A stretch of DNA of 64,000 bases from Parcubacteria group bacterium. GTDB lineage: Bacteria; Patescibacteriota; Minisyncoccia; Moranbacterales; UBA11712. This document shows, piece after piece, positions 1,571-43,519 of this stretch (its first letter is position 1; the number at the start of each line of letters is the position of its first letter). The stretch spans positions 60,847 through 124,846 of the forward strand of contig JBAZYY010000001.1 of NCBI GenBank assembly GCA_041659065.1, given 5' to 3'. Under the pieces are notes generated by a model. It worked only from the letters and a program-made list of their open reading frames with translations, searched no databases and was not told the origin of the DNA. Both the position numbers and the translations under genes were made by a program.

Positions 1571-1642
1571 ATTCGTGGTGTCAAGTCAGGTCGTTTCGCA
1601 GCGCAAATAAACAGGCAAATCTATGGACATCCGCCTGTTTTT

Positions 1643-1651
1643 TTGCTATAA
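1643..1651 (+). promoter_or_regulatory. Extended -10 element TGCTATAAT 7 nt upstream of the thpR ATG (leaderless-type promoter)
   Basis: TTTTTTTGCTATAATTTAGCTATG, with no room for a Shine-Dalgarno sequence. Confidence 0.4.
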
Positions 1652-1658
1652 TTTAGCT

Positions 1659-2207: not shown

Positions 2208-2243
2208 TGCCTTGAAAAAGTCGGTTGTAATCCGGACAATAAA

Positions 2244-2957: not shown

Positions 2958-2959
2958 AC

Positions 2960-3697
2960 ATGCCAAAACAAAAAATATTTATTCCAATTGCGTCGCTTAT
3001 TTTAGGCCTGTTTATTGTCTGGGGCTTGACATTTTTCAATTGGACGCCAGCGACATCTTATTTGGCTTATGCTATATTGGTAATTTTTTTTCTAGGAACT
3101 CTTGTATCGAACCAGCAATATGAAGAAGATAAAGTCGCAAAAATCCAAAGGATTATGGGCGCATTTCTTCTGTCGTATATTTTTTATTTCCGGCTGCTTT
3201 ACGCGCCCATCAGCCGTTTTTTCTTCGAGAATCTGATCAGCAAAGTTTCTTTTTTTTCCGATCTGCTGACGCTCTTTCTTTTCCTGATTTTTTTCTTTCT
3301 TTTCGGGACGACTTTCCTGGTCATTAACAGCTACGCTCGTTTCGGCTTTCTTTCCGAATGGCGAATCTTTAACAATTTACGCGCTTATTATGCGTTTCGG
3401 ATTCTTTTTTTCACAATGTTTCTTGCGTTCATAATGCTCTACGCGCGCAACTCATTTTTTTCAATCAATAACTCTTTCTATCTGAATAAAATTCTGGGTC
3501 CTGCTACATGCAACTGGACTTATGTGAGTTATCAGAATTTTCTTTCCACGGGGAAGGAAAAGCAGGGGAGAGACGTCTGTTTATACAATTACGCTCAAGA
3601 TAGGAATGATGTTAAGTATTGCAATTTAATTTTTGATCCGGATGTCGAAAGCCAATGCCTTGAATATTTTAATCCCGGCTCAAGCGTTCAAGAATGA
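2960..3697 (+). CDS. Polytopic membrane protein with Cys-containing C-terminal tail, unknown function
   Basis: Multiple hydrophobic helices. Start set at the ATG at 2960 because the longer ORF overlaps the upstream gene. The 3' end overlaps the gltX start (ATGA). Confidence 0.5.
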   Translation: MPKQKIFIPIASLILGLFIVWGLTFFNWTPATSYLAYAILVIFFLGTLVSNQQYEEDKVAKIQRIMGAFLLSYIFYFRLLYAPISRFFFENLISKVSFFSDLLTLFLFLIFFFLFGTTFLVINSYARFGFLSEWRIFNNLRAYYAFRILFFTMFLAFIMLYARNSFFSINNSFYLNKILGPATCNWTYVSYQNFLSTGKEKQGRDVCLYNYAQDRNDVKYCNLIFDPDVESQCLEYFNPGSSVQE

Positions 3698-29911: not shown

Positions 29912-29913
29912 AT

Positions 29914-30483
29914 ATGAAAATTATTACCATTTCCGGGCTGGATGGTTCGGGAAAATCAACTCAAATCGAGTTTCTAAAAAAATATCTTGAATCACAAGGC
30001 AAGTCTTTTTATTATTTTCACGCAGTTCAGTTTTCGATATTTAATAGAATATTAAATAAGAAAAAAAGAAATAGTGGAGTCGAAAAAAGCGCGACACAGG
30101 CTAATTGGTTTCAAATTCAACTTCGGAAAATCTCATTACTTGTTGATATTTGCAGATTTAAAAAATTAGTTAAGAAAATAGATGCAGATTACATCATCAG
30201 TGACCGGTATTTTTATGACAGCGTCGTGAATATAAATTTTCTTTCGCGGAATAATAAAACGCTATTCGCGGAGAAATTTATTCCACGGCCCGACTTAGCG
30301 ATTTATCTCAAAGTGAACCCTGAAAAAATTATGCAAAGGGAAAGAAAGCCGGATCAAGGGCTTGAATATCTTATAAAAAAACAAGAGTTATATGAAGATA
30401 AATCAAAGTATTGGGATATAATGGTTATTGATGGAGAGGCAGCTAAAGAAGAAATATTCAAGGTCTTAAAATCCAAAATATAA
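29914..30483 (+). CDS. Thymidylate-kinase-like P-loop nucleotide kinase
   Basis: ISGLDGSGKSTQ P-loop and a DRYFYDSVV (DRY) motif; 189 aa. Confidence 0.6.
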   Translation: MKIITISGLDGSGKSTQIEFLKKYLESQGKSFYYFHAVQFSIFNRILNKKKRNSGVEKSATQANWFQIQLRKISLLVDICRFKKLVKKIDADYIISDRYFYDSVVNINFLSRNNKTLFAEKFIPRPDLAIYLKVNPEKIMQRERKPDQGLEYLIKKQELYEDKSKYWDIMVIDGEAAKEEIFKVLKSKI

Positions 30484-30581
30484 AACTCAAAGTTCAAATC
30501 AAGTCTGAATGACTAAGTCTAAATATTTGAATTTTTTATTTTAGATTTGATTTGATATTTGGATTTTTTAATTAGAAATTT

Positions 30582-32084
30582 ATGAGTCGATTTTTGGTAA
30601 AATCATTTTTTTGGGTGACGCTTTCAGAGATTATCTATAATCTCTCGGCTTATGTTATCCATGCCGTGATGGGGCGGGTTCTGGGTCCTTCTGATTACGG
30701 CCGATATGGGATCGTTATCACGCTGACTACAATGATCGTTGTGCTTATTGGACAGGGTGTTCCTACCGCAATGTCAAAATACCTTAGCGAGATTTTCGAA
30801 ACGCAGCAAGGCTTAATTCCGGTCATTAAGAAACAAACTGCTCGGATTCAAATTATCTTAATAGGAGTAGTGACAGTTATCTTTTTTCTCTTGACCCCTT
30901 TGATAGCCCGTGTTCTTGGTGATTCTACGCTAACTCCCCTTTTCCAAATATCGACTTTAGTCATTCCAGCCTTTGCGCTTGCGTCATTTTATTTTTATTA
31001 TTACACCGGACTCCATCTTTTCAATAAACAGGCTATTCTTAAGACTTCCCGGTCTTTCGCGAGAATAATTTTCATTCTAGGGTTTGCTTGGCTTTTGAAA
31101 TCACGAGGTATGGCTCTTCAGGGAGCGATTATCGGTTATATTCTGGCTCCCCTTTCGATTTTTTTCGAGGCCAATTTTTTCGATCCCTACAAAAAAATTA
31201 AAGCAGGAGGCTTTTTTGATTGGCGAAAGCTTGTGAAATATGCCTGGCCAATGACGCTTTTTCTGATTGCCTACGAATTTATGATAACTATCGACCTGTA
31301 TTTAGTTAAAGGTCTTCTAAAAAGTGATTATCTGACTGGAATCTATAATGGAGCGATTACGGTCGGCAGAATCCCCTATTTCCTTTTTTATGCTTTAACG
31401 ATAATTATCCTGCCGGCGGTTTCCAAATCGACTTCTAGCAATAATGACAAAGAGACTAAAACACTTGTTAGCGAATCATTACGGCTAATGGTCATGTTTC
31501 TTGTCCCTTTGTCAATTCTGATGTCAGTATTTTCTCCTTCAATAATAAGGGTTTTCTATTCGGCAAAATATTTGGATGCCGCTTTGCCGATGTCAATCCT
31601 GATGAGCGGGGTGACCTTTCTCACGGTTTTCTACTTTTTGGCCTTTGCGCTGAATGGCGCGGGAAAAGTAAAAATTCCAATGGTTATCTCGTTTGTCGGT
31701 TTGGCGCTTAATGTAATATTCAGTTTTATTTTTATAAAAAAATACGCCCTCATGGGCGCGGCTCTGGCAACATCAGTGACTTCCTTTATTACCATGCTTT
31801 TGGCGTTAATATACACGTATCGATATTTCGGCTATTTATTCGAAATGAAGAGGTTTATAAAAATAATCTTGGCATCCGCTGTTATGTATTTTGCGGCCCT
31901 GCTATTTCCACAGGGGAAATTAACATTTATTCTCTGGTCGGCTATCCTGATCCTCTTTTATGTATTCCTTCTTTACGCAATGAAAGAACTGGGGTCTTCT
32001 GATGTTCAAATAATAAGGCAGCTGATTAAAAGAAAAAATAAGAATAAAGTAGAATTTGAAAAGGAAGAAATCGAAGAAAGATAG
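30582..32084 (+). CDS. Wzx-type polysaccharide/oligosaccharide flippase (MOP superfamily)
   Basis: 500 aa with ~14 TM helices and a flippase-like hydrophobicity pattern; lies in a glycan locus. Confidence 0.7.
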   Translation: MSRFLVKSFFWVTLSEIIYNLSAYVIHAVMGRVLGPSDYGRYGIVITLTTMIVVLIGQGVPTAMSKYLSEIFETQQGLIPVIKKQTARIQIILIGVVTVIFFLLTPLIARVLGDSTLTPLFQISTLVIPAFALASFYFYYYTGLHLFNKQAILKTSRSFARIIFILGFAWLLKSRGMALQGAIIGYILAPLSIFFEANFFDPYKKIKAGGFFDWRKLVKYAWPMTLFLIAYEFMITIDLYLVKGLLKSDYLTGIYNGAITVGRIPYFLFYALTIIILPAVSKSTSSNNDKETKTLVSESLRLMVMFLVPLSILMSVFSPSIIRVFYSAKYLDAALPMSILMSGVTFLTVFYFLAFALNGAGKVKIPMVISFVGLALNVIFSFIFIKKYALMGAALATSVTSFITMLLALIYTYRYFGYLFEMKRFIKIILASAVMYFAALLFPQGKLTFILWSAILILFYVFLLYAMKELGSSDVQIIRQLIKRKNKNKVEFEKEEIEER

Positions 32085-32102
32085 GTATTTAAACGCTTAT
32101 CC

Positions 32103-33617
32103 CTAAAGGTTTAATTTCTCGCCTTCAAGCGCGAAGTATCGTTTGACGCCTTGATAGACTTCGCTTTCTATCTCATCGTCCGCCTTAGCCGCGGCTATGC
32201 GTATCCATTCCTGCCAATCGGCAGTTTTTTTGTTAATAACGCTTAAGCGTTGCTGGGTTTCAAGAAATCTTTGCTCAATATTTCCCTCTTGTTCGCGAAA
32301 ATCCCTCATCTTACTTTCGTTTTGAAGCAGGATATTTTCCAGTTCACCCTTTTTAGAATCGTAGTTTTCGATATCATTCGGTGTGACTTTTGTTTCTAGC
32401 TTGGCTCCTGATATTTTTTTGGCGGTACCATTCGCATCAATATGAATATTTGTCAGGCGGCCCAACTGATGAGAAATAATTCTGTCAACCTTCATAATGT
32501 ATTGATTGATATCTTCGAGAAACATTTTTTTGCGGTCAAACCAGCCGGAAATGTGAAGTCCCTCAATTTCATTAAACATTTTTTTTAAAATACTCATGGC
32601 ATGAGAATAGATTCTATCAGCTGTTTCGAGCATTTGGCGATGCCTAGCAAGCCGCAGCTCGATCTCCCGAATGCTCTCCGTCTGCAAGCTTATTTCGGAA
32701 AGCAGTTTTTCGAGTTCTCTGCGGGCGACATCTCGCTCCTCACTGGATCGCACGAAGATATCAGTCGTTCTCTCCGGTTCAGCTGAAAGACTTGCCAGAT
32801 TGATGACGTTTCGCAGAAGTATGGCGACTGTCATCGGTCCAACTCCACCAGGAACAGGTGTAATAAAAGCGGCTTTCGAGCTTACTGAATCAAAATTAAC
32901 ATCTCCCGCAATCTTTGTCCCGTTGCGGGATATTCCGACATCAATCACAACGGACTTCGACTTAACCATGTCAGCCGTGATAAGCCCCTTTACGCCTGTG
33001 GCACTGACCAAGATATCAGCCCGCTCCGTAAAGTCGGAAAGATTATGGGTTTTGTCATGGCAAATAGTTACAGTTCCGCCCCTCTCCAAAAACATTTCAC
33101 TAAGCGGCTTCCCGACGATATCAGAATAGCCGACTATGACCGCATTCTTTCCGGATATCTCGATGTCGTATTCGCTCATTAATTCGATTATGCCCAGAGG
33201 CGTTGCTGGTCCGATCAACATATTTTGTTCTCCGGATTGCATGAATTCTCCAAAATTTGCCGGAGTTAGGCAATCTGCGTCTTTGCCGGGGTCAATTGCG
33301 GACAACGCATTATATCGATCAATGTGGTCGGGCAGCGGAAGTTGGACTAGAATGGCGGTGATCCGATCATCGGCGTTGAGAATGTCAATTTCTTCGATTA
33401 GCTGATTCTCGGATATTTCTTCGGGAAAAACAATCTCTTCTGCGACAATCTCGACCTCTCGCGCGGCTTTAATTTTGTTCTCAACGTAAATCCTAGAAGC
33501 CGGATCTTCTCCGACAGTGACAATTGCCAGCACTGGCTTCTTCTCCATTTTCGAAACGGAATCTTTGATTTTAGATCTGATTCTTTCAGCTAATTTCGCG
33601 CCATCAAGAAGTATCAT
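32103..33617 (-). CDS. folD: Bifunctional methylenetetrahydrofolate dehydrogenase/cyclohydrolase FolD fused to a ~215 aa C-terminal helical/coiled-coil extension
   Basis: The N-terminal ~285 aa are canonical FolD (YVENKIKAA..., GKNAVIVGYSDIVGKP, PVPGGVGPMTVAILL). The ORF then continues for ~215 residues rich in E/K/R/L. Confidence 0.8.
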   Translation of the reverse strand: MILLDGAKLAERIRSKIKDSVSKMEKKPVLAIVTVGEDPASRIYVENKIKAAREVEIVAEEIVFPEEISENQLIEEIDILNADDRITAILVQLPLPDHIDRYNALSAIDPGKDADCLTPANFGEFMQSGEQNMLIGPATPLGIIELMSEYDIEISGKNAVIVGYSDIVGKPLSEMFLERGGTVTICHDKTHNLSDFTERADILVSATGVKGLITADMVKSKSVVIDVGISRNGTKIAGDVNFDSVSSKAAFITPVPGGVGPMTVAILLRNVINLASLSAEPERTTDIFVRSSEERDVARRELEKLLSEISLQTESIREIELRLARHRQMLETADRIYSHAMSILKKMFNEIEGLHISGWFDRKKMFLEDINQYIMKVDRIISHQLGRLTNIHIDANGTAKKISGAKLETKVTPNDIENYDSKKGELENILLQNESKMRDFREQEGNIEQRFLETQQRLSVINKKTADWQEWIRIAAAKADDEIESEVYQGVKRYFALEGEKLNL

Positions 33618-34360
33618 ATTTGAATTTTAGAGAATAAGTAGTTTCCGACAATAAGCAACAGCAGGGTTACAATCGCAAGAATATACAGGTCAACGTGCAA
33701 TCCAAAATGAGTCATATCGATCAGGGTTCCCCTGAGGCCATCTACGCCGTAAGCCAGCGGATTCAGGCTTCCGATAATCGTAATTGCTTTCGGCAGCCCT
33801 TGAAAGGGAAAAAGCGCTCCGGAAAGGAAAAAAATTGGCATCACCAAAAAATTCATAATAAGCTGGAATCCCTGCATGTCTTCGAGGACTGAAGCGATTG
33901 CTGTTCCCAAGGCGGTGAAAAGAAGCGCTATCAAAAACATGAAGACAAGCGCTACTGGAAAAAGCAGCCAATTCTCGGGCCGAAATCCCACAGCTAAAGA
34001 TATTAAAAAAACGATTACCCCCTGCAAAAGGGCAACCGTTGCTCCGCCAAAGGTTCTCCCGATCATGATTTCCATTCTGGAAACCGGGGCGACCAAAGTT
34101 TCCTTCAAAAAACCGAATTGCTTGTCCCAAATAATTTCGATTCCCGAAAAGACGGAGGTAAAGAGCACGCTCATCGCAATAATCCCCGGGGCCAGGAATT
34201 GGATATAATTTCCGCCGCCGGCTCGCTGATAAATCGGCCCGAAACCGTATCCTAAGGCAAGTAAAAACAGCAGTGGCTGGCCAATCGAGCCAATAATCCT
34301 GGATTTCGACCGGGAGTACCGCTTGAGTTGCCTTAGCCAGAGTATATAGATAGTGCTCAT
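33614..34360 (-). CDS. ABC-2 type transporter permease
   Basis: Six TM helices, 248 aa; start overlaps the upstream folD (ATGA). Confidence 0.75.
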   Translation of the reverse strand: MSTIYILWLRQLKRYSRSKSRIIGSIGQPLLFLLALGYGFGPIYQRAGGGNYIQFLAPGIIAMSVLFTSVFSGIEIIWDKQFGFLKETLVAPVSRMEIMIGRTFGGATVALLQGVIVFLISLAVGFRPENWLLFPVALVFMFLIALLFTALGTAIASVLEDMQGFQLIMNFLVMPIFFLSGALFPFQGLPKAITIIGSLNPLAYGVDGLRGTLIDMTHFGLHVDLYILAIVTLLLLIVGNYLFSKIQI

Positions 34361-34403
34361 GCTGTTGTTATATTACAAACGGATAAAATCTTGCGGATGT
34401 GGA

Positions 34404-35198
34404 TTATCTTCTTGTCCAGAGGCGGCTATGCATTCGCATTTCAGCTTTACTTTCGGCGTGTTCTTCTCGAATGTCGCGGCCCGTGATCTCCAAGAAGGCT
34501 TCTTCCAGGGAATCGGTTTTAGTGGACTGTTCCAGCTCTTTAGATGTCCCCGCCGCAACAATTTTGCCATGGTCAATAATTGCAATCCGATTAGAGATTC
34601 TTTCGGCTTCTTCCATGATATGGGTCGAGAAGAAGATGGTTATCTTTTCTTTTTTATTTAGATCTCCAATGTAACCCCAGATATGGTTTCGCGTTTGTGG
34701 GTCAAGCCCAAGCGTCGGTTCGTCAAGAAAAAGTATCTTGGGGTGATGCAGGAGTCCTCGGGCGATTTCCAACCTGCGCTTCATGCCTCCGGAAAAATTT
34801 TTTACATATTCGTCTTTTCTGTCCCATAGCTCGACAATTTCCAGCAACTCTTTGGTCCGCGTATCCCTGATTTTAGGGGGTATCTTGTAGAGCACTCCGT
34901 GAAAATGCATGTTTTCATAAGCCGTGAGTTCATCATCAAGGCTTGGATCCTGGAAAACAATTCCAAAATTACGTCGAACTTCATCGGGCTTTTCGGTTAC
35001 ATCGTAGCCATTCAGCAGAACCTGGCCGCTCGTGGGGCGCAAAAGGGTTGTCAGAATTTTTATGGTAGTTGTTTTGCCGGCACCATTGGGTCCCAAAAAA
35101 GCAAAGATATCCCCCTCTTCCACCTCAAAAGAGATGTCATTGACAGCCTCGATTTCTCCAAATTTTTTTACTAAATTTTTGACTGAAATAGCTGGCAT
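34404..35198 (-). CDS. ABC transporter ATP-binding protein
   Basis: Walker A (GPNGAGKTT), ABC signature (FSGGMKRRLEIARGL) and Walker B (ILFLDEPT). Confidence 0.85.
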   Translation of the reverse strand: MPAISVKNLVKKFGEIEAVNDISFEVEEGDIFAFLGPNGAGKTTTIKILTTLLRPTSGQVLLNGYDVTEKPDEVRRNFGIVFQDPSLDDELTAYENMHFHGVLYKIPPKIRDTRTKELLEIVELWDRKDEYVKNFSGGMKRRLEIARGLLHHPKILFLDEPTLGLDPQTRNHIWGYIGDLNKKEKITIFFSTHIMEEAERISNRIAIIDHGKIVAAGTSKELEQSTKTDSLEEAFLEITGRDIREEHAESKAEMRMHSRLWTRR

Positions 35199-35230
35199 AT
35201 ACGATTAGTACGTATTAAGAAGGTATTTTA

Positions 35231-36496
35231 TTATATTCCTGGTACCGGATATTTACGAAATACTTTTTCAATTTCCTCTCTTAGTTTATTTAAATAATTT
35301 TCATCTGAATGATTATTTAAAGCATCAACAATCCATCCGCCTATCTTCTTCATCTCATCTTCTTTCATTCCCCTGGTTGTAGCAGCGGGAGTGCCCAATC
35401 TTATTCCACTAGGCTTTAGGGGTGGATTAGGATCGTCTGGAATAATCTGTTTATTGACAGTAATTGATACCTTATCTAGTGTCTGTTCCGCTAATTTTCC
35501 ATCTATTCCAAAACTTTCAACAGTATTCGCAACCATCATATGATTGTCCGTTCCATCAGTAATAAGCTTAACTCCATTGTCCATCAATGTTTGCGCAAGA
35601 ACTTTAGCATTCAGGAGAACTTGTTTGCCATATTCCTTATATTCAGGTTGTAACGCTTTTCCTAGCGCCACTGCTATTGCCGAAATGGTATTCATATGTG
35701 GTCCTCCTTGAAGGCCTGGAAAAACGGATTTATCTATTTTTTCAGCGAATTCTTTTTTGCACATAATTATTCCTCCTCTGGGCCCTCGAAGGGATTTATG
35801 CGTAGTAGCGGAAACCACATCAAATCCATGATCAAACGGATTACGCATGACGTCGGCTGCTATGAGCCCGCCAATATGAGCAACGTCTGCAAAAGTTATT
35901 GCCCCTACCTCATCCGCAACTTTCTTGAAGTCGGAATAATTATAATCTCGTGGATATGAAGTATAACCGCACATCACAATTTTTGGTTTTATTTCTTTCG
36001 CCAGCCTCATCAACTCATCGAAATCTATTCTTCCTTTTTCATCTGGATGAGTTTTGTACCGAGTAAAATTAAACACCTTTCCCATGTGAGAAACTGGAGC
36101 GCCATGAGTTAAGTGCCCTCCATGAGTCAATTCCATCGCCAGTACGGTATCGCCAGGTTCCAAAAAAGCGAAATATACAGCTTGATTCATGGGTGATCCT
36201 GAAAGAGGCTGAACATTAGCATGCTCGCATCTGAACAACTTTTTTGCTCGCTCTCTGGCAAGATCTTCAACTATATCAGTATAGGTTTGGCCGCCATAAT
36301 ATCTTTTACCAGGATATCCTTCCGCGTACTTATTGGTCAGTATTGATCCGTTAGCTGCAAAGACTTCGGGATAGGTATAGTTTTCTGAAGGTATTAGCTC
36401 TATTCCTCTAGATTCTCGTTTTTCTTCTCCGATGATTGCGTCATAAACTTCCGGATCATTCGTCTTTAGCAGATCTAGATTTTTTTTCACATCCAT
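35231..36496 (-). CDS. glyA: Serine hydroxymethyltransferase
   Basis: PLP-Lys motif TTHKSLRGPRGG; start set at the Met of MDVKKNLDLL. Confidence 0.95.
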   Translation of the reverse strand: MDVKKNLDLLKTNDPEVYDAIIGEEKRESRGIELIPSENYTYPEVFAANGSILTNKYAEGYPGKRYYGGQTYTDIVEDLARERAKKLFRCEHANVQPLSGSPMNQAVYFAFLEPGDTVLAMELTHGGHLTHGAPVSHMGKVFNFTRYKTHPDEKGRIDFDELMRLAKEIKPKIVMCGYTSYPRDYNYSDFKKVADEVGAITFADVAHIGGLIAADVMRNPFDHGFDVVSATTHKSLRGPRGGIIMCKKEFAEKIDKSVFPGLQGGPHMNTISAIAVALGKALQPEYKEYGKQVLLNAKVLAQTLMDNGVKLITDGTDNHMMVANTVESFGIDGKLAEQTLDKVSITVNKQIIPDDPNPPLKPSGIRLGTPAATTRGMKEDEMKKIGGWIVDALNNHSDENYLNKLREEIEKVFRKYPVPGI

Positions 36497-36689
36497 ATTT
36501 ATTTTATTTAAGCAAATTAACAAACTTACCCCCGGCTTTCTGGAAAAGCGGGAGTATGATAAAATTGTAATAAAGTTTAGGGTTTAAGGCAAATAAATTC
36601 TCAAAAATGGAGAAAGGACAGTCTAGTTTTTCTGGCGGGCCTTCCTTTGAGCTTAAGCAAGAGATTTAACCAACGATATAATCAGTGGG

Positions 36690-37721
36690 ATGAAGGAATC
36701 AATTCTTTATGAAAAACTGAAAAAAGAGCTTATAAGATGCAAAACCTGCAGCCATTATTGCGTTATCGCGCCAAAAAAGAGGGGGATTTGCGGAGTGAGA
36801 GAAAATATTAATGGAAAATTATTTTTTTTGCCTTACGGGCGGGTTATCGCGAAAAGCATTGATCCGATCGAAAAAAAACCGCTTTTTCATTTTTTGCCGG
36901 GAAGCCTCTCTTTTTCTATCAGCACTGTTGGCTGCAATCTGCGTTGCGCGAATTGTCAGAATTGGACAATTTCCCAGTTCGGGAAATTGCCCGGTGTTAC
37001 CCGGGAAATGATTGAAAAAAGCGGTGAGGAGTTGCCGCCCAAAGAAATAATCAAGCTGGCTAAAGAAAATAATTGCCCAAGCATTTCCTATACTTACACC
37101 GAACCCACAATATTTCTTGAATATGCGCTTGAGACAATGAAGCTGGCAAAAAAAGCCGGTCTCAAAAATGTATGGGTGTCTAATGGATTCATGAGCAAGG
37201 AAACATTTCAGCTGATTACTCCCTATTTGGATGCCATAAACATAGATATCAAGTCCTTTGACGACAAATTTTATCAAGAAAACTGCGGAGCAAGGCTCGC
37301 GCCGGTACTAGAGAATTGCAAACGCGCGGTGAAAAATAAAATTTGGCTTGAAACGACAACCTTGGTTATTCCGACGCTTTCCGACGACGAAAAAATGCTG
37401 CGAAAAATCGCAGAGTTTATAAAGACAGAATTAGGCGATTTCGTCCCTTGGCATGTCAGCGCTTTTTCCGGTGCAATTTCTTGGAAGCTGCAGCACCTTT
37501 CCGAGACAACTGTCGAAAAGATCAAGCAAGCTTACGAAATTGGAAAATCAACCGGCCTCAAGTATGTTTACGCGGGCAATATTCCCGGTTCGGACATGGA
37601 AAACACTTATTGCTCCAAGTGCGGAGAAAGAATGATTAAAAGAATTGGCTACGATGTCAAGAGGCTCGATAAAGAAGGAAAGTGCGGCAAGTGTGGGGGA
37701 AAATTAAATCTTGTAGAATAA
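36690..37721 (+). CDS. AmmeMemoRadiSam-system radical SAM enzyme (PflA-like)
   Basis: Radical SAM CNLRCANCQNW (CxxxCxxC); an N-terminal CxxC...C cluster; a C-terminal CSKCG...CGKCGG zinc ribbon; ~340 aa. Lies upstream of the Memo-like and AMMECR1 genes. Confidence 0.7.
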   Translation: MKESILYEKLKKELIRCKTCSHYCVIAPKKRGICGVRENINGKLFFLPYGRVIAKSIDPIEKKPLFHFLPGSLSFSISTVGCNLRCANCQNWTISQFGKLPGVTREMIEKSGEELPPKEIIKLAKENNCPSISYTYTEPTIFLEYALETMKLAKKAGLKNVWVSNGFMSKETFQLITPYLDAINIDIKSFDDKFYQENCGARLAPVLENCKRAVKNKIWLETTTLVIPTLSDDEKMLRKIAEFIKTELGDFVPWHVSAFSGAISWKLQHLSETTVEKIKQAYEIGKSTGLKYVYAGNIPGSDMENTYCSKCGERMIKRIGYDVKRLDKEGKCGKCGGKLNLVE

Positions 37722-37748
37722 ATTTCTAATATCCAATTTCTAATATCC
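37721..37748. repeat. Tandem duplication of the 14-mer AATTTCTAATATCC in the radical-SAM / Memo intergenic spacer
   Basis: Two exact adjacent copies, followed by related AATATC/TCCAAAT motifs. Confidence 0.4.
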
Positions 37749-37887
37749 AATGAAAATTCCAATATCAAAATCCAAATGACAAATAAAATTCAGAGTTTAA
37801 AATCGAAAAATATTTTAAAATTGGAATTTGGAGGTTTGAGCAAAACTATGGCTGGTAATATTATTAATAATTCAATTAACGTGTCTC

Positions 37888-38685
37888 ATGATTAGGTTTG
37901 CCGCTATAACCCCTCATCCCCCCATAGCTATTCCAACAATCGGAAAGAACGATTTAAACTTGTGCCGAAAGACAGTTAATGCCATGAAGCAACTGGGAGA
38001 AAAATTCCGTGCCGTAAAAGCAGAAACTATTGTTCTTATCTCCCCGCATGGCCCGGTTCAATATGACAAATTCCTCTTTAATTATACGCCGGTTCTCCGC
38101 GGCGATCTGTCTCAATTCGGGGATACTAGGAAATTTTTATTCGAAAATGATCGCGGACTGGTGGATGAGGCCGTAAATAGCTTGAGAAATAACGGTCTTC
38201 CAGTTGGATTGGTTCGCGAGTTGGAACTTGACCATGGGGCGTTGGTGCCTCTTTTCTATCTTCTTAATGAAAAAGATGCCTCATATAACCCAAGGCTTGT
38301 CCATCTTTCGTATACGATGCTGCCTCTTGATTATCATCTGAAATTCGGGAGAGTTCTGGGGCAGGTGCTTCAAAGTTCGGAAAAAGTAATTTCGTTTATC
38401 GCAAGTGGCGATCTTTCGCACCGAGTGACCCAGGACGCACCAGCCGGATATTCTCCTCAGGGGCGAATTTTCGACAAAAATTTAATCAGCTTGATTCAAC
38501 GCAAAAACCTCAAGGGAATAATGGAATTGGATCCGGCATTTATAGAAGAAGCGGGAGAATGCGGATTGCGCTCGATAATCATGATGCTCTCGGGCATTTC
38601 AAATCTTCGCTGGGAAATAAAATCATTGAGTTACGAAGCACCTTTTGGAGTCGGGTATTTAGTTGCCAATATCAACATCAAATAG
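37888..38685 (+). CDS. Memo-like protein (AmmeMemoRadiSam system protein B; LigB-type extradiol-dioxygenase fold)
   Basis: Memo-like motifs: PHPP, LISPHGP, ASGDLSHR and CGLRSIIMML. A YgiD-like LigB-superfamily enzyme is the alternative assignment. Confidence 0.55.
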   Translation: MIRFAAITPHPPIAIPTIGKNDLNLCRKTVNAMKQLGEKFRAVKAETIVLISPHGPVQYDKFLFNYTPVLRGDLSQFGDTRKFLFENDRGLVDEAVNSLRNNGLPVGLVRELELDHGALVPLFYLLNEKDASYNPRLVHLSYTMLPLDYHLKFGRVLGQVLQSSEKVISFIASGDLSHRVTQDAPAGYSPQGRIFDKNLISLIQRKNLKGIMELDPAFIEEAGECGLRSIIMMLSGISNLRWEIKSLSYEAPFGVGYLVANINIK

Positions 38686-38729
38686 GACTTCGGCGGATAT
38701 CAAGAGGGATTTAAATCTATTTTTATCAT

Positions 38730-39269
38730 ATGGAGCGACATATTCAGCTGGCCAAGAAAGCTATTGAGAAATTTGTCAAAACCGGCAAAAAAATAGAGAT
38801 ACCTTCCGATCTCCCCCCGAATTTTTACGAGAAGGAATACGGAGTATTTGTCAGTCTCCACAGGGGAGATAAGTTGAGGGGCTGTATAGGAACCTATCTT
38901 CCCCAATATAGAAATTTAGCTGAAGAAATAATTCAAAATGCTATCGCGGCCTCGAGCGAAGATTACCGTTTTCCACCAGTTACTGCTGATGAAATTAACA
39001 ATCTGGAGATCAAAGTCAGCCTTCTAAACCAGCCCGAAAAAATTGGCAGTTTGGAAGATCTCGATGCAAAGAAATACGGCATAATTGTAAAATCAACGGA
39101 TGGCAAGTGCGGCCTGCTCCTGCCTGATCTTGAGGGAGTTGAAAGCGTGGAGCAGCAAATTTCGATCGCCTGCCAAAAGGCGGGTATAAATCTGAGTTTT
39201 GATAAAGATATTGAGATCTCTCGATTTGAAGTCACAAAATACCCGGGAGAAAATAATCAAGAAAGCTAA
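38730..39269 (+). CDS. AMMECR1-domain protein (AmmeMemoRadiSam system protein A)
   Basis: Hallmark LRGCIGT motif and a second Cys (DGKCGLLLP); 179 aa. Confidence 0.8.
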   Translation: MERHIQLAKKAIEKFVKTGKKIEIPSDLPPNFYEKEYGVFVSLHRGDKLRGCIGTYLPQYRNLAEEIIQNAIAASSEDYRFPPVTADEINNLEIKVSLLNQPEKIGSLEDLDAKKYGIIVKSTDGKCGLLLPDLEGVESVEQQISIACQKAGINLSFDKDIEISRFEVTKYPGENNQES

Positions 39270-39272
39270 TTA

Positions 39273-41216
39273 ATGCGAGATAAACGCTACATAATACAAG
39301 TCATTCCACTCATTCGCCTGCCGCTCATGCGGACGCAGGCTTTTTCGTATTACAATCCGGAGATTCTGCCGGCAGGTTCGCTGGTAAAGGTTTCATTTTT
39401 TCGCCAAAACGTACTGGGAATCGTAGTCGGCATCAGAGATGATTTTGAGCATAAGGGTACGATCAGAATAAAAAACATTGGAGAAGTGATTGAAAAATCT
39501 TTTCTTACGGAAAAGCAGCTGGCGCTTGCTAACTATGTAGCGGAAAAATATATTTGCCCGCCTGGCATCGTCCTCAAGGGAATGATTCCAAGCCAGTTTA
39601 AAATGAGGGCTAAAAAAGGAAGCGCCCAGACATTGAAGGGCAAAAATATAATTACTAAAAGCGCGATAGCGGAAAAAATTTCAAAAGACAAGTCGAAATA
39701 TTTTGTACTGGATGGGAGCGGGACGGAAAGAGAAGCGGTAAACTTGGCGCTCATAGGTGAATTAGTAAAAACAAAAAAGCAATGTCTGATTCTTGTTCCG
39801 GAAATATATTTTTCCCATGGCATTTACGAAAAAATTAAAACAAATTTTCCCGAGCAGGAGATCGCGCTGTTTCACAGCAAAATGGCCAAAGGAAAGCAGA
39901 ATGAGTGGCGGGAAAAAGTGAAGGAGGGAAAATTAAAAGTAATTATTGCTTCGCGGGCGGGAATTTTTCTTCCCTTTAAATCTTTGGGTCTCGTCATTGT
40001 GCGGGAACCGCAGGAAGCATCCTTTAAACAGTGGGATACAGCGCCGCGGTATAACGCAGCCGATAGTGCTCGTTTTCTGGCTGATCAATATGGCGCAAAA
40101 TTGATATTCGAAAGCTTCATGCCGTCCGTTAAACTATTTAAAAAAATCGAAGACCGGGAATACATGCGGATCAGCTGCAGTCAAACTGGAAAAGAAAAAC
40201 GCAAAATTGAAATTGTGGACATGTACCCGGAAAAGAAATCGGCTGATTTACCGATCTCAAAAAATCTTTATTCGGGGCTTGCCAAAAGCATAGAGGATAA
40301 AAAGCAAGCCTTGCTGCTCGTAAATCGCCGGGGTTTTTCAACTTTTTCGATTTGTCAAAGCTGCAAAAAGGTACTTAGTTGCCCGAAATGTGATAAGGCA
40401 CTTGTGTATTTTGACGAAAAATCACAATATGTCTGCCTCCACTGTGGGTATAAGCGAGATCTCCTGAGCTCCTGTCCAAGTTGTGGCGGATTTCAGTTCT
40501 CGCATTATGGAGTGGGATCTCAAACCGTCGAAAAGAAATTAAAAAAGCTGTTTCCCTTTATTAAAATTGGAAGGCTCGATTCCGACACGATAAAAAGCCA
40601 AAGCCGCCTAAAAAAACTTTATGCCGATCTTTTTGGGAAAAAAATAGATATTCTTACCGGTACGCAGATAGCGCTGGAAAGCATGGAGTCCGGCAGTTTC
40701 AGCTTAGTGGGAATTATTTCCGCCTATGACTTTTTTGGGAAGCCGGATTACAATTCCAGAGAAACAGCGTTCTTTAATCTTGGCCGAGCTCGCGAACTCG
40801 TAGGAAGCCAAGGAGTCCTGATTATTCAAGCTCCATCCCTGAATGACCCGCTTTTCAAATATCTGGAAAGCGGGAAATCCGAAGATTTTTTGAAAGACGA
40901 ATTAAAATTAAGGAAAAAGTACGCCTATCCTCCCTACTCTCAAATTATTAAACTGAGCTACGCCGATCATTTGCAAAAAAAAGCGGAAAGCGAATCTGCG
41001 CGTGTGTTTGACTTGCTGAATGTTAAAAGCCATAATAATATAAGGATTGAGGACCCGTTTGCGCCGTATCTCGCGAAAAAAAGGGGGAAATTTACAATAA
41101 ATATACTGATAAAGATATCAGGCAAGGAAGTTATCGCCGACACGCCTATTTACGCAATTATGAGTTCGCTCGGGAAAGGCTGGAAAATCGACGTGGATCC
41201 CATTTCAACCGTTTAA
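39273..41216 (+). CDS. priA: PriA-like primosomal protein N' with degenerate ATPase motifs
   Basis: PriA-like N-terminal 3'-DNA-binding region and a 4-Cys zinc-binding insert (CQSCKK...CPKCD...CLHCG...CPSCGG). Walker A reads GSGTERE, with no Lys where GSGKTEV is expected. The DEEH box is replaced by REPQ. Confidence 0.65.
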   Translation: MRDKRYIIQVIPLIRLPLMRTQAFSYYNPEILPAGSLVKVSFFRQNVLGIVVGIRDDFEHKGTIRIKNIGEVIEKSFLTEKQLALANYVAEKYICPPGIVLKGMIPSQFKMRAKKGSAQTLKGKNIITKSAIAEKISKDKSKYFVLDGSGTEREAVNLALIGELVKTKKQCLILVPEIYFSHGIYEKIKTNFPEQEIALFHSKMAKGKQNEWREKVKEGKLKVIIASRAGIFLPFKSLGLVIVREPQEASFKQWDTAPRYNAADSARFLADQYGAKLIFESFMPSVKLFKKIEDREYMRISCSQTGKEKRKIEIVDMYPEKKSADLPISKNLYSGLAKSIEDKKQALLLVNRRGFSTFSICQSCKKVLSCPKCDKALVYFDEKSQYVCLHCGYKRDLLSSCPSCGGFQFSHYGVGSQTVEKKLKKLFPFIKIGRLDSDTIKSQSRLKKLYADLFGKKIDILTGTQIALESMESGSFSLVGIISAYDFFGKPDYNSRETAFFNLGRARELVGSQGVLIIQAPSLNDPLFKYLESGKSEDFLKDELKLRKKYAYPPYSQIIKLSYADHLQKKAESESARVFDLLNVKSHNNIRIEDPFAPYLAKKRGKFTINILIKISGKEVIADTPIYAIMSSLGKGWKIDVDPISTV

Positions 41217-41228
41217 TTCCAAATAACT

Positions 41229-41699
41229 ATGGACAACAACGAAACGTTGAATATAATAAAATACCCGGATGGCTTTTTAAGAAATAAGACTCATGCGGTC
41301 AAGGATTTTAGCGATCCCAAGCTTGAACTGCTGATCAAGGGCATGGTAAAAGCGATGGAAGTTAACAAAGGCATAGGGCTCGCTGCTCCTCAAGTCGGAT
41401 CCAGTCTTAAAATTTTCATTTGTAGAGTCGATAATGAACTTTATGCCCTGATTAATCCCGAGATCAAATCCTTTTCAAAGAAAAAAGAATTTTACGAAGA
41501 GGGCTGTTTGAGTTTTCCCGGAAAATATTTCCAGATTGAACGGCCCATAAAAGTCAAAGTCAAAGCGTACGATCTTAAAGGGAAAAAAATCAGGATTAAA
41601 GCCGATGGCCTCTTGGCGAGAGTTATTCAGCATGAGATTGACCATCTGGACGGAGTTTTGATAATCGACCGGGTAAAATCGGATAAGAAAGATAAATAG
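41229..41699 (+). CDS. def: Peptide deformylase
   Basis: Motifs GIGLAAPQVG, EGCLSFPG and HEIDHLDG. Confidence 0.9.
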   Translation: MDNNETLNIIKYPDGFLRNKTHAVKDFSDPKLELLIKGMVKAMEVNKGIGLAAPQVGSSLKIFICRVDNELYALINPEIKSFSKKKEFYEEGCLSFPGKYFQIERPIKVKVKAYDLKGKKIRIKADGLLARVIQHEIDHLDGVLIIDRVKSDKKDK

Positions 41700-41716
41700 A
41701 AAATACTAAATTACTA

Positions 41717-42682
41717 ATGACAAAAGATCAGCGCATAATTTTTTGGGGGTCGCCGGAATTTGCGGCGGATATTTTACATAAGCTGTTAAAAGAAAAATTT
41801 AATATTGTCGCAGTCGTCACCCAGCCGGACAAAAAAATCGGCCGGAAACAGGAAATTTCAGAGCCGCCAGTCAAATCAATCGCTTTGAAAAATAAAATAA
41901 ATATATTTCAGCCGGAAAATCTCAAAGAGGAAGAGTTTATAAGGCAAATCAAGCGACTTGAACCGGATTTGCTTCTCGTGGCCGCGTACGGAAAAATAAT
42001 TCCCAAAGATATTTTGGATATTCCCCGCCGAGGATCAATTAATGTCCATGCTTCGCTCCTCCCAAAATACAGGGGTGCTTCCCCTATTCAAAGCGCGATA
42101 ATCGCCGGAGATGAAAAAACCGGCGTGACTCTCATGCTTATGGACTCTGGACTCGATACGGGAGACATTATCGCCCAAAAAGAAATTAAAATAGGAAAAG
42201 ACGAAACTTCGGAGACTCTGACAAAAAAATTATCGGCGCTTGGAGGCGAGCTTCTTGTGAACTCTATCGGCTCTTGGCTTGAAGGCGGAATTAAAGCCAT
42301 TCCTCAGGATAGCGGCCAGGCCAGCTATTCTAAAATCATAAAAAGGCAAGATGGCGAGATAAATTGGGAAGAGCCGGCATTGGAAATTTATCAAAAGTAC
42401 AAGGCCTACTTTCCCTGGCCGGGCCTGCATACGCTTCTTGATGTCAAAGGTGAGTTAAAGCGCATCAAGTTGGTTGACATCTATCCCCTGAAAAGCCCTG
42501 GAGCTGGCGGAAAGGCGGGAAAAATCATAAAAGTGGAAGAAAAAATTGCCGTGCAGACCAGCGAAGGATTGCTAGCTATCAGAAAGGCGCAGATTGAAGG
42601 AAAAAGAGAAATGGCGGCTGAAGAAATTGCCAAGGGCTATCCGGAACTAATCGGTTCTGTTTTTCAAAACAATTTCAAATAA
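41717..42682 (+). CDS. fmt: Methionyl-tRNA formyltransferase
   Basis: N-terminal formyltransferase domain (INVHASLLPKYRGASPIQ) plus the C-terminal domain; 321 aa. Confidence 0.9.
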   Translation: MTKDQRIIFWGSPEFAADILHKLLKEKFNIVAVVTQPDKKIGRKQEISEPPVKSIALKNKINIFQPENLKEEEFIRQIKRLEPDLLLVAAYGKIIPKDILDIPRRGSINVHASLLPKYRGASPIQSAIIAGDEKTGVTLMLMDSGLDTGDIIAQKEIKIGKDETSETLTKKLSALGGELLVNSIGSWLEGGIKAIPQDSGQASYSKIIKRQDGEINWEEPALEIYQKYKAYFPWPGLHTLLDVKGELKRIKLVDIYPLKSPGAGGKAGKIIKVEEKIAVQTSEGLLAIRKAQIEGKREMAAEEIAKGYPELIGSVFQNNFK

Positions 42683-42697
42683 AACTATCCAAAACAT

Positions 42698-43519
42698 ATG
42701 GGCCAAAATAAAGATAATCAGAAAGCTTTTATCGCTGGATTCATTTTAATTTTACTGGTTATACTTTGGGTAATTCTAAAGCCTGCTATTAGTTCTTGGA
42801 AGGGGTCAAAGTCGCAAAATGCAGAAGATAAGATGGCAGAGGTTTTTTCGGCTGCGCCGACTATTTCCGCGAGCGACCTCTACAAAGAGCTTGAGCAAAA
42901 TTACGACCGATTCATTATCGATACGAGAAGCGCGATAGAATTTAAAAAAGGTCATATCGCGGCCTCGAAAAATCTGGATCGAGATTCTTTAAGCGTAAGT
43001 ACCTTAACTGCGCTTGGAGTAAAAAAAACAACTGAAATTATTTTAATTGATAATCCAGAAAACATCTACAAAACGGCCGGAAAAGTAACTGAGCTTTTAG
43101 GCTCCGGATTAGTGGAGGTGAAATATCTCGAGGGAGGTCTGGCGAGTTGGACAGAGCTGGGCTATGCGCTGGTTTCTTCAGGCGGATCCGATCTCGACAG
43201 TTCCAAAGTAAAAAAAATCAGTTTGGAACAATTAAAGAGCGATCTTGAGAGATCTTCGGATCTGGTGCAAATTATTGATATTAGGGAAAGTTCAGCTTAT
43301 AACCAAGGTCACCTAAAAGGCGCGGAAAATTTTCCGCTGGCTGATTTGGAAAAAGGGAAGAAAGACATTTCCTCCATTAAGGAAGTAGTTGTTTATGGCG
43401 GAAGCGAAGAAAGCTTTAACGCAGTGGTTGCTTTATTTGATCTTAACTTTTTCAACGTCTATCAACTGAACGGAAACTATGAAGATTGGAAAAACTCCGG
43501 GGGAAATATCGAAAACTAA
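42698..43519 (+). CDS. Membrane-anchored tandem rhodanese-like domain protein (catalytic Cys apparently absent)
   Basis: N-terminal TM helix and two rhodanese-like repeats (FIIDTRSAIEFKKGHI and IIDIRESSAYNQGHL); no Cys in either active-site loop position. Confidence 0.6.
   Translation: MGQNKDNQKAFIAGFILILLVILWVILKPAISSWKGSKSQNAEDKMAEVFSAAPTISASDLYKELEQNYDRFIIDTRSAIEFKKGHIAASKNLDRDSLSVSTLTALGVKKTTEIILIDNPENIYKTAGKVTELLGSGLVEVKYLEGGLASWTELGYALVSSGGSDLDSSKVKKISLEQLKSDLERSSDLVQIIDIRESSAYNQGHLKGAENFPLADLEKGKKDISSIKEVVVYGGSEESFNAVVALFDLNFFNVYQLNGNYEDWKNSGGNIEN

Follow-up and report, generated by a model that had tools for sequence, protein, structure and literature searches.

Known associations of AMMECR1 and PCAD-Memo proteins

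AMMECR1 proteins carry two defined motifs, RGChG and DxRa, and consist of a RAGNYA fold present in duplicate, with a cysteine that looks catalytic; modification of RNA bases has been predicted for them, and an organic radical on the cysteine has been suggested (Balaji & Aravind 2007, PMC2034487). In the same study, gene neighbourhoods and fusions tied AMMECR1 both to a radical SAM enzyme and to a 'ring-opening dioxygenase' (PMC2034487), and in archaea AMMECR1 has been linked to NFACT and to a Mut7-C RNase (PMC4075521). The PCAD-Memo superfamily is defined by four histidine motifs, SHxPA, NDHA, DHG and GxSH, together with a glutamate metal ligand (PMC8431788). Curated NCBIfam models describe the grouping as AmmeMemoRadiSam, with TIGR04337 for the radical SAM enzyme, TIGR04335 for protein A (AMMECR1) and TIGR04336 for protein B. 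No experimental or biochemical characterisation of AmmeMemoRadiSam was found in the searchable literature.

Organisation of the locus

The whole stretch of DNA analysed here, from a bacterium of the candidate phyla radiation (CPR), 64 kb long and referred to as the window, has in its list of open reading frames three co-oriented genes on the + strand (Table 1), for a radical SAM enzyme, a LigB-like protein and an AMMECR1 protein. The initial annotation had described them as a complete AmmeMemoRadiSam triad. As far as the conserved three-gene unit and the passing of two curated models are concerned this stands, but the middle protein misses the cut-offs for protein B and Memo. We have little doubt that the known AMMECR1/radical SAM/PCAD-Memo-superfamily system is genuinely present at this locus, in a LigB-type version. 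Two of the three proteins already carry AmmeMemoRadiSam names in GenBank, the first being listed as 'AmmeMemoRadiSam system radical SAM enzyme', and no second copy of the radical SAM, LigB-like or AMMECR1 gene is present in the 64-kb window.

Table 1. Features of the locus (positions in the window)
Feature	Position	Strand	Length and evidence
glyA (serine hydroxymethyltransferase), divergent	35231-36523	-	Pfam SHMT 490 bits; upstream locus boundary
Radical SAM enzyme, AmmeMemoRadiSam family	36690-37721	+	343 aa; TIGR04337, Pfam Radical_SAM
Intergenic spacer, AT-rich	37722-37887	+	166 bp; tandem 14-mer and one sigma-70-like site
LigB-fold (PCAD-Memo superfamily) protein, TK2203-like, 'protein B' position	37888-38685	+	265 aa; Pfam LigB
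AMMECR1-domain protein (AmmeMemoRadiSam protein A)	38730-39269	+	179 aa; TIGR04335, Pfam AMMECR1
priA	39273-41216	+	TIGR00595 329 bits, cut-off 230
def	41229-41699	+	TIGR00079 148.6 bits, cut-off 104
fmt	41717-42682	+	TIGR00460 294.9 bits, cut-off 201.5
Two-domain rhodanese	42698-43519	+	last of the packed downstream block 39273-43519

The previously reported neighbourhood of priA, def and fmt is found directly 3′ of the trio, each gene scoring above its NCBI curated cut-off. Together with the rhodanese gene they are co-oriented, with intergenic gaps of 3-17 bp, and the LigB-like and AMMECR1 genes are therefore probably co-transcribed with priA, def, fmt and the rhodanese gene as a single transcription unit. 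The downstream gene order matches that of two Moranbacteria relatives (L084 and L085) and of many CPR loci, and the position of glyA is unchanged in L002, L003, L004 and L084.

The spacer between the first two genes does contain the tandem 14-mer that had been reported in it: AATTTCTAATATCC is repeated 2.2 times at 37721-37751 with 100% matches (Tandem Repeats Finder), which makes this one of only two sites in the window with a repeat score of at least 50, and the 14-mer has no further occurrence in the window. A promoter-like ATGACA-16-TAAAAT with 10/12 matches is present at 37776-37803, site counts being within shuffle expectation. Reading frames in the spacer extend over 9 and 15 codons only. 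An Rfam search of the spacer gave no match at E ≤ 1, and its RNA fold z-score is +0.94. Neither the spacer nor the 14-mer is conserved; among the closest relatives the radical SAM and LigB-like genes are -4, 94 and 94 bp apart. A riboswitch, a small RNA and an operator were rejected on the Rfam result, the fold score, the uniqueness of the 14-mer and the variable length, and the region probably does no more than separate the genes and carry an internal promoter.

Radical SAM enzyme and AMMECR1 protein

The radical SAM enzyme passes the curated AmmeMemoRadiSam model TIGR04337 with 313.9 bits against a cut-off of 220 and matches Pfam Radical_SAM with 75.8 bits. Every motif claimed for it as a PflA-like enzyme was found in the translation: the CX3CX2C cysteines C82/C86/C89 lie within VGCNLRCANCQ, four additional cysteines (C17/C20/C24/C34) are present near the N-terminus, and a C-terminal zinc ribbon of the form CxxC...CxxC reads CSKCG...CGKCG. 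Both the core and the additional cysteines are invariant among 12 homologues. Among characterised proteins it comes closest to activases of glycyl-radical enzymes (YjjW, 56 bits; PflA, 55 bits; PDB 3C8F, E 8e-6). An ordinary pyruvate formate-lyase (PFL) activating enzyme was nevertheless rejected, the score with TIGR02493 being 55.4 bits against a cut-off of 231.75, and no glycyl-radical enzyme is encoded among the annotated neighbours (28361-43519) or in the related loci.

The AMMECR1 protein is equally clear, with 137.4 bits for TIGR04335 (cut-off 99), 159 bits for Pfam AMMECR1 and a match to PH0010 (PDB 1VAJ) at E 1e-23. The LRGCIGT motif that had been reported is in the translation, RGCIG carrying Cys52, and is accompanied by DYRF, which fits the published DxRa.

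The middle protein is LigB-like

The middle gene had been described as encoding a Memo/LigB-fold protein, and the LigB half of this description holds. Pfam LigB is matched with 120.9 bits against a gathering score of 26.3. In a Foldseek search with the AlphaFold model (pLDDT 94.3), TK2203 gave a TM-score of 0.86, TK2203 and the PCAD enzymes (LigB-type protocatechuate dioxygenases) together spanned 0.78-0.86, and Memo and YgiD (2PW6) each reached 0.66. TK2203 (PDB 5HEE) is also the closest solved structure by sequence (E 9e-14, 26% identity). Assignment to the Memo family itself was rejected: while the other two NCBIfam models of the system are passed, TIGR04336 gave 18.3 bits against a cut-off of 26, over residues 134-247 only; Pfam Memo (PF01875) gave 23.8 bits against 27; a profile of the middle protein's family found no match to Memo in the PDB at E ≤ 1; and Memo ranks low by fold. 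Homologues at about 50% identity do pass TIGR04336 and are named 'protein B', so that the LigB-like family straddles the boundary of this model. A catabolic dioxygenase of the YgiD, HpaD or LigAB type was likewise rejected, as there is no equivalog-level score (the best, HpaD_Fe, is 37.2 bits against a cut-off of 316) and no catabolic context, aromatic-catabolism genes being absent among the annotated neighbours and from the related loci. The middle protein is thus a LigB-type stand-in for protein B and not a classical Memo. The locus does not contain what the initial annotation had named as a refuting outcome, namely a YgiD-type dioxygenase and a standard PFL-activating enzyme with unrelated surroundings.

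The histidine motifs of the protein are PHPP (H10), SPHG (H54), DHG (H116) and GDLSH (H178). H10, H54, H116, H178 and E224 are conserved in the LigB-like family, in which AGECG (E224, C225) is invariant. H10, H54, D115, D175 and H178 are essentially invariant across all 80 loci compared below, at positions corresponding to the four PCAD-Memo histidine motifs (PMC8431788). E224 aligns with the glutamate in the GEGG motif of HpaD. C225 we take to align with the metal-binding Cys244 of Memo (human MEMO1). Judged by its sequence, the protein is a LigB-fold member of the PCAD-Memo superfamily with its characteristic histidine motifs and a putative metal site.

Conservation of the trio and loss of partners

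We compared 80 species-level loci carrying a LigB-like gene, with at most 10 kb of flanking sequence, or less near contig ends. In 36 of them, spread over at least four phyla, the LigB-like and AMMECR1 domains are joined in a single protein, and another 19 have a separate AMMECR1 gene beside the LigB-like one (55/80 in total). A TIGR04337-like radical SAM gene is found within 10 kb in 48 of the 80 loci. There are also nine loci with only the LigB-like and radical SAM genes, 16 with AMMECR1 and no nearby radical SAM gene, and 16 in which the LigB-like gene has neither partner nearby. The trio occurs in identical order in L002, L003, L084, L085 and the P0002 contig, the relatives with this arrangement being at 73-90% identity. 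At the locus of the closest species representative (L004, 74% identity) the LigB-like gene stands alone with priA directly 3′, and no radical SAM or AMMECR1 gene is nearby. The system is therefore not obligatorily tripartite. It had been argued that presence in a reduced genome implies an essential role; this argument is weak, because related genomes, L004 among them, keep only the LigB-like gene at the locus.

Of the trio, the LigB-like gene is the one most often retained in CPR, and at least 23 loci have it directly upstream of (priA-)def-fmt. Among the 80 loci the def-fmt linkage is absent outside CPR, and the association with priA-def-fmt is probably a lineage-specific gene order of CPR rather than a functional link. 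Less probably, the CPR version of the LigB-like protein serves a separate function linked to this operon.

All 21 Bacillota loci have an adjacent radical SAM gene, and none of the 10 Acidobacteriota loci has one in its retrieved flank (at most 10 kb, or less near contig ends); the former hosts are anaerobes and the latter belong to aerobic soil lineages. Strict anaerobes among the hosts of the LigB-like family include Dehalococcoides mccartyi, Desulfotomaculum, Pelotomaculum and Desulfofundulus, which, together with the O2-labile radical SAM partner, argues against O2-dependent ring cleavage.

Additional neighbours

The survey of conserved extra neighbours proposed by the initial annotation as a source of candidate substrates returned mostly lineage synteny, with one link worth keeping. 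The only recurrent and functionally suggestive neighbour is a flavoprotein of the geranylgeranyl-reductase family, present in 10 of the 80 loci. In nine Acidobacteriota loci, mostly from Pyrinomonadaceae, its gene divergently adjoins the LigB-AMMECR1 gene, and the L054 protein passes TIGR02032 (164.5 bits, cut-off 158.8). A weaker homologue separates the radical SAM gene from the LigB-like gene in a single CPR locus (L018). No gene of this family is present in the 64-kb window. As far as the substrate is concerned, this neighbour speaks against RNA and points to isoprenoids instead.

The remaining candidates were set aside because they look like lineage synteny: ClpB, GltX, WecG, LigT and a secreted protein of 470 aa that matches nothing in Pfam, all in CPR, GyrB in Acidobacteriota, and, in Bacillota, cwlD (Pfam Amidase_3) with the block preceding it, which from gene sizes and the known Bacillus gene order we presume to be ecfA-ecfT-truA-rplM-rpsI. 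In the window LigT-WecG-GltX lie 32 kb from the trio, and the translation-related neighbours in CPR (GltX, LigT, Def and Fmt) are either that far away or plain synteny.

Possible function and alternative explanations

The explanation that we consider best overall, and likely, is that the locus is a LigB-type AmmeMemoRadiSam copy carrying out a multi-step covalent modification, the three proteins probably performing successive steps of it. The PFL-activase-like radical SAM enzyme would split SAM, and the resulting 5′-deoxyadenosyl radical would remove a hydrogen from the substrate. The LigB-like protein would bind a metal via H10, H54 and E224, possibly also C225, and with H116 and H178 could perform an O2-independent redox or rearrangement step. 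The cleft between the two RAGNYA domains of AMMECR1 may be where the substrate binds, the invariant cysteine of RGCIG acting as a nucleophile or group carrier. As the likeliest substrate we suggest, tentatively, an RNA base or nucleotide. Counting against this explanation are the score of the middle protein below the protein B cut-off, the loci without one or both partners, the geranylgeranyl-reductase-family neighbour and the distant or merely syntenic position of the translation-related genes in CPR.

Alternatively, though we regard this as unlikely, the substrate of the three enzymes could be an isoprenoid or polyprenyl lipid or a quinone-like molecule instead of RNA. The geranylgeranyl-reductase-family gene in the nine Acidobacteriota loci and in CPR L018 would fit such a substrate. 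Burroughs and co-workers, in work of 2019 on the PCAD-Memo superfamily, are moreover said to have proposed an isoprenoid link for its Memo clade. However, nine of the ten loci with this gene come from a single phylum and the present window has none, and both the fold of AMMECR1 and the contexts of its gene in archaea suggest nucleic acids.

Somewhat less probable still is that the LigB/Memo-type protein and AMMECR1 form an ancient two-enzyme core that archaea and eukaryotes also have (in humans as MEMO1 and AMMECR1), with the radical SAM enzyme as an add-on of anaerobes that may supply without O2 the oxidising or radical step which aerobes perform with O2. This suggestion derives from the distribution of the radical SAM gene, constant in Bacillota and missing from the Acidobacteriota flanks.

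We consider it quite improbable that the radical SAM enzyme is an activase or maturase that equips AMMECR1 (at RGCIG) or the LigB-like protein with a radical or a post-translational modification, the protein so altered being the actual catalyst. Its kinship with YjjW, PflA and 3C8F would agree with this, as would the invariant Gly-Cys-x-Gly motif of AMMECR1, on which Balaji and Aravind suggested a cysteine radical (PMC2034487). Neither the LigB-like nor the AMMECR1 sequence, however, contains a glycyl-radical signature of the RVxGY type. Furthermore, AMMECR1 lacks a nearby radical SAM gene in 16 loci, and to our knowledge eukaryotes possess AMMECR1 and Memo without the AmmeMemoRadiSam radical SAM enzyme, so that AMMECR1 cannot strictly depend on activation by it.

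Least probable of all is that adjacency merely reflects inherited gene order and that the LigB-like protein stands alone, as an aromatic extradiol dioxygenase or as a factor working with priA-def-fmt: its best scores are indeed with LigB-type dioxygenases, and it often lies upstream of (priA-)def-fmt or without partners, but the AMMECR1 fusions across phyla, the constant radical SAM neighbour in Bacillota, the sub-equivalog dioxygenase scores, the many strictly anaerobic hosts, the lack of aromatic-catabolism neighbours and the restriction of the def-fmt linkage to CPR all speak against it.

Relatives of two disease-associated human proteins, AMMECR1 and MEMO1, are joined in this system with a radical SAM enzyme, so that solving any of its members would matter. 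If the two-enzyme core with a radical SAM add-on were true, bacterial operons would offer a direct handle on the chemistry of AMMECR1 and MEMO1. The present copy adds little by itself, as GenBank already has it annotated and the LigB-type variant and the fusions have been described since 2007. Useful by-products are a clear assignment of the CPR partner to the LigB type, with a hybrid Glu-Cys motif at its putative metal site, the observation that the trio is often reduced to the LigB-like gene alone at the loci of related CPR genomes, and the evidence that the priA-def-fmt linkage is a gene order specific to CPR.

Comparison with known systems

TK2203 of Thermococcus kodakarensis, a putative extradiol dioxygenase, is the closest relative of the LigB-like protein in both structure and sequence; it differs in having ALPDS in the alignment where the LigB-like family has the invariant AGECG. 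With human MEMO1 (3BCZ, 7KQ8) the superfamily fold is common and the C-terminal halves align weakly (SGDLSH/SSDFCH, ECG/ICG), whereas the N-terminal histidine motifs are LigB-like here (PHPP, SPHG) and Memo-like in MEMO1 (PHAGY, GPSH). The radical SAM enzyme shares its core with the PFL-activating enzyme and the other glycyl-radical-enzyme activases, but scores 4-8 times under the cut-offs of those families and adds the N-terminal four-cysteine motif and the C-terminal zinc ribbon. Compared with AmmeMemoRadiSam as modelled by NCBIfam, the radical SAM and AMMECR1 proteins lie above the cut-offs and the genes are adjacent and co-oriented, the difference being that the position of protein B is taken by a LigB-type protein. 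The family of this third partner also supplies the AMMECR1 fusions in Bacillota, Chloroflexota and Acidobacteriota. The locus is an ordinary instance of a widespread association that was published, fusions included, in 2007. It is exactly the grouping of Balaji and Aravind (PMC2034487), in which LigB-like and AMMECR1 domains are fused in many loci with the radical SAM gene alongside; in CPR, by contrast, the genes are separate, lie upstream of priA-def-fmt and have often lost their partners.

Results

The trio is encoded by three forward-strand ORFs at the positions reported in the initial annotation, in a metagenome-assembled genome of the Parcubacteria group (candidate phyla radiation, CPR), and priA, def, fmt and a rhodanese gene follow with gaps of 3-17 bp. 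GenBank names the products 'AmmeMemoRadiSam system radical SAM enzyme' (MFA5871172.1), 'class III extradiol dioxygenase subunit B-like domain-containing protein' (MFA5871173.1, the middle gene) and 'AmmeMemoRadiSam system protein A' (MFA5871174.1).

Features of the trio locus and of related stretches of the window
Feature	Position	Strand	Remarks
LigT-WecG-(279-aa ORF)-GltX	1623-5202		GltX stop at 5202
14-mer repeat AAAATTTAAAGTTA x1.9	5226-5252		just past GltX end
RtcB RNA ligase, thymidylate kinase, MurJ/polysaccharide-flippase-like gene	28361-32084		order kept in L084 and L085
FolD	32103-33617	-	methylene-THF dehydrogenase/cyclohydrolase
ABC-2 transporter pair	33614-35198		between FolD and SHMT
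glyA	35231-36523	-	upstream of trio, opposite orientation
TATAAT region	36677-36692		perfect TATAAT 7 nt 5' of ATG (36690)
Radical SAM enzyme	36690-37721	+	343 aa ORF
Spacer	37722-37887		166 bp
LigB-like middle protein	37888-38685	+	265 aa ORF
AMMECR1 protein	38730-39269	+	179 aa ORF
priA	39273-41216	+	TIGR00595, 329 bits (cut-off 230)
def	41229-41699	+	TIGR00079, 148.6 bits (cut-off 104)
fmt	41717-42682	+	TIGR00460, 294.9 bits (cut-off 201.5)
Two-domain rhodanese	42698-43519	+	

Both outer genes score above the curated NCBIfam cut-offs. The radical SAM enzyme reaches 313.9 bits on TIGR04337 (cut-off 220) but only 55-56 bits on the PflA and YjjW activase models (cut-offs 232-250); PFL-AE is its sole match in a PDB sequence search (E 8e-6). 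It has the CX3CX2C motif (C82/C86/C89), the extra N-terminal cysteines (C17/C20/C24/C34, invariant in 12 homologues) and the C-terminal CxxC...CxxC ribbon that had been described. This zinc ribbon is dispensable, being missing from the enzymes of the closest Moranbacteria-like relatives, which end right after the GNI motif (L084:7108-8004, L085:7010-7906, L052:8373-9326). With TIGR04335 the AMMECR1 protein reaches 137.4 bits (cut-off 99), and among solved structures it matches PH0010 (1VAJ, E 1e-23); its LRGCIGT, noted initially, and its DYRF fit the published RGChG and DxRa motifs (PMC2034487).

The middle gene had been called Memo/LigB-fold; it is of the LigB type and TK2203-like, not Memo. 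It scores 120.9 bits on Pfam LigB, 23.8 on Pfam Memo (gathering score 27) and 18.3 on TIGR04336, the protein B model (cut-off 26), where only the C-terminal half is matched. The best solved relative is TK2203 of Thermococcus kodakarensis (5HEE, E 9e-14), and a confident AlphaFold model built from 24 homologues (pLDDT 94.3) gave Foldseek TM scores of 0.86 against TK2203, 0.78-0.83 against HpaD, aminophenol dioxygenases and DesB, about 0.75 against DOPA dioxygenases, 0.70 against LigB and 0.66 against both Memo and E. coli YgiD. A search of PDB sequences with the family profile yields TK2203 and dioxygenases of the LigB type; Memo is not among the hits at E<=1. All 24 aligned homologues match TIGR04336 weakly (best 8e-11) and HpaD-type models more strongly (best 2e-20). 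Since homologues at about 50% identity carry the NCBI name 'AmmeMemoRadiSam system protein B', the family straddles the low TIGR04336 cut-off, and the window's protein falls just below it.

The 166-bp spacer does begin with the tandem 14-mer that had been noticed, a perfect 2.2-copy AATTTCTAATATCC, and such a repeat is rare in the window: the only other one scoring >=50 also has a 14-mer unit and again lies directly after a gene end. The spacer has no match in Rfam, no excess of RNA structure (z +0.94) and one promoter-like site, within chance expectation. Its length is not conserved: a relative at 90% identity and L085 have 94 bp, and in L084 there is no spacer, the radical SAM and LigB-like genes overlapping by 4 bp at the stop of the one and the start of the other. 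The best reading is an ordinary intergenic region, AT-rich and with a duplication by slippage, possibly containing an internal promoter. At the radical SAM gene start, preceded by a TATAAT, no Shine-Dalgarno sequence lies at a usable distance, and the mRNA may lack a leader or have only a very short one.

The order of the trio is the same on identical contigs from other samples, in the relative at 90% identity and in two Moranbacteria-like relatives (L084 and L085, 73-76% identity), where the block reads FolD<SHMT< rSAM-LigB-AMMECR1-PriA-Def-Fmt-Rhodanese. In the window, one-carbon genes lie on both sides, Def and Fmt 3' and FolD and SHMT, the route to 10-formyl-THF, 5' (32103-36523). In L084 the ABC-2 transporter pair is missing and FolD abuts SHMT; in L085 the place of SHMT is taken by nothing more than a short ORF of 101 aa. 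The window's FolD has Pfam domains at residues 4-276 and a C-terminal extension of ~225 aa, rich in charged residues and without Pfam match, whereas in L084 and L085 the protein has only 277-287 aa.

When one genome of each GTDB species was scanned by pattern, the LigB-like family turned up in at least 591 species of Patescibacteria, Chloroflexota (including Dehalococcoides), Bacillota (Desulfotomaculum, Pelotomaculum, Desulfofundulus and others), Acidobacteriota and Armatimonadota. Among the best 80 loci, an adjacent radical SAM gene is seen in 21/21 from Bacillota and 0/10 from Acidobacteriota.

Gene context of the LigB-like family: best 80 loci of the at least 591 species
LigB-like gene	Radical SAM within 10 kb	No radical SAM within 10 kb
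Fused to AMMECR1 (same ORF)	27/80	9/80
Separate, AMMECR1 adjacent	12/80	7/80
Separate, AMMECR1 absent	9/80	16/80

Extra conserved neighbours had been proposed as candidate substrates, and we clustered every ORF lying up to 8 kb from the LigB-like gene at these 80 loci and annotated recurrent clusters. Recurrent neighbours were found, but apart from a reductase they are housekeeping genes, each linked in one lineage only. A common CPR order is GltX< WecG< LigT< rSAM> ClpB> (secreted 470-aa protein, no Pfam match)> LigB-like> [AMMECR1>] [PriA>] Def> Fmt>. In Bacillota the fused gene comes after cwlD (Pfam Amidase_3 match), itself at the end of what we take, from gene sizes and Bacillus order, to be an ecfA-ecfT-truA-rplM-rpsI block. 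In Acidobacteriota the radical SAM gene is lacking, and the fused gene has gyrB on one side and on the other a divergent gene of the geranylgeranyl reductase family (TIGR02032, 164.5 bits against a cut-off of 158.8 in L054). Linkage to priA-def-fmt was seen in at least 23 CPR loci and no non-CPR locus among the 80, and we take it for gene order peculiar to the CPR, not for functional coupling. LigT-WecG-GltX is 32 kb from the trio here; many other CPR genomes have it right beside the radical SAM gene, a difference that points to a rearrangement.

Two conserved CPR proteins recur. One, of ~450-500 aa (to ~750 aa in a few), carries a signal or anchor segment at its N terminus and matches nothing in Pfam or NCBIfam; its gene directly precedes the LigB-like gene in 22 loci (L005, L009, L014-L017, L020-L024, L028-L034, L037, L044, L051, L065), and is absent from the window's locus. 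The other, a ~90-aa ORF without Pfam match, lies on the opposite strand between the LigB-like gene and def, in place of AMMECR1 and priA in loci without them (L016, L017, L019, L021, L023, L028, L032-L034, L065).

Discussion

The AmmeMemoRadiSam interpretation was right in substance, except that the middle gene is not Memo, an essential role is unsupported and the spacer is unremarkable. Recurrent fusion and adjacency across phyla are strong evidence that AMMECR1 and the TIGR04337 enzyme have a functional partner in the LigB-like family. A PFL-activase-like radical SAM enzyme, a LigB-fold protein with a predicted metal site and a Cys-bearing AMMECR1 are inherited as a unit, often fused, and would act one after the other in a single covalent modification. 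O2-dependent ring cleavage is unlikely to be the LigB-like step, because many hosts of the family are strict anaerobes and the radical SAM partner is oxygen-labile. Because the radical SAM gene is adjacent in all Bacillota and no Acidobacteriota loci, one could speculate that a LigB/Memo-AMMECR1 pair is older and that anaerobes in particular have added this enzyme to it for a step independent of O2, although the pattern could equally reflect lineage gene order.

As substrate we tentatively favor an RNA base or nucleotide, because AMMECR1 has a RAGNYA-fold cleft and a likeness to Tyw3 (PMC2034487) and its archaeal members are linked to NFACT and the Mut7-C RNase (PMC4075521). The main rival, an isoprenoid, is rather unlikely. 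The geranylgeranyl-reductase link seen in these loci speaks for it, as does a weaker reductase homologue between the radical SAM and LigB-like genes of one CPR locus (L018); the 64-kb window has no gene of that family. Burroughs et al. (2019) reportedly proposed an isoprenoid link for the Memo clade. It is improbable that the radical SAM enzyme serves as a protein activase. Hardly probable at all is a LigB-like protein acting as a stand-alone enzyme, even though the gene occurs alone, with catalytic-looking residues intact, in 16 of the 80 loci. The closest species representative (L004, 74% identity; SHMT< LigB-like> PriA> Def> Fmt>) leaves no space at this locus for either partner gene, radical SAM or AMMECR1. 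With only the LigB-like gene kept at these loci, the earlier argument that the system is essential in a reduced genome is weak.

Four His motifs, SHxPA, NDHA, DHG and GxSH, are given for the PCAD-Memo superfamily (PCAD, LigB-type protocatechuate dioxygenase) in a passage of PMC8431788 citing Burroughs 2019. The middle protein keeps all four, as PHPP (H10), SPHG (H54), DHG (H116) and GDLSH (H178), and AGECG is invariant in its family. The site looks like a hybrid of the PCAD and Memo types, because E224 falls on the Glu of the GEGG motif in HpaD and C225 presumably lies opposite Memo's metal-binding Cys244 (a weak hhalign match to the MEMO1 sequence). No experimental study of the AmmeMemoRadiSam system was found in the searchable literature. 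The system, this LigB variant included, has already been described and annotated: Balaji and Aravind (2007) reported the LigB-like family, as a 'ring-opening dioxygenase', neighbouring or fused with AMMECR1, alongside a radical SAM enzyme (PMC2034487).
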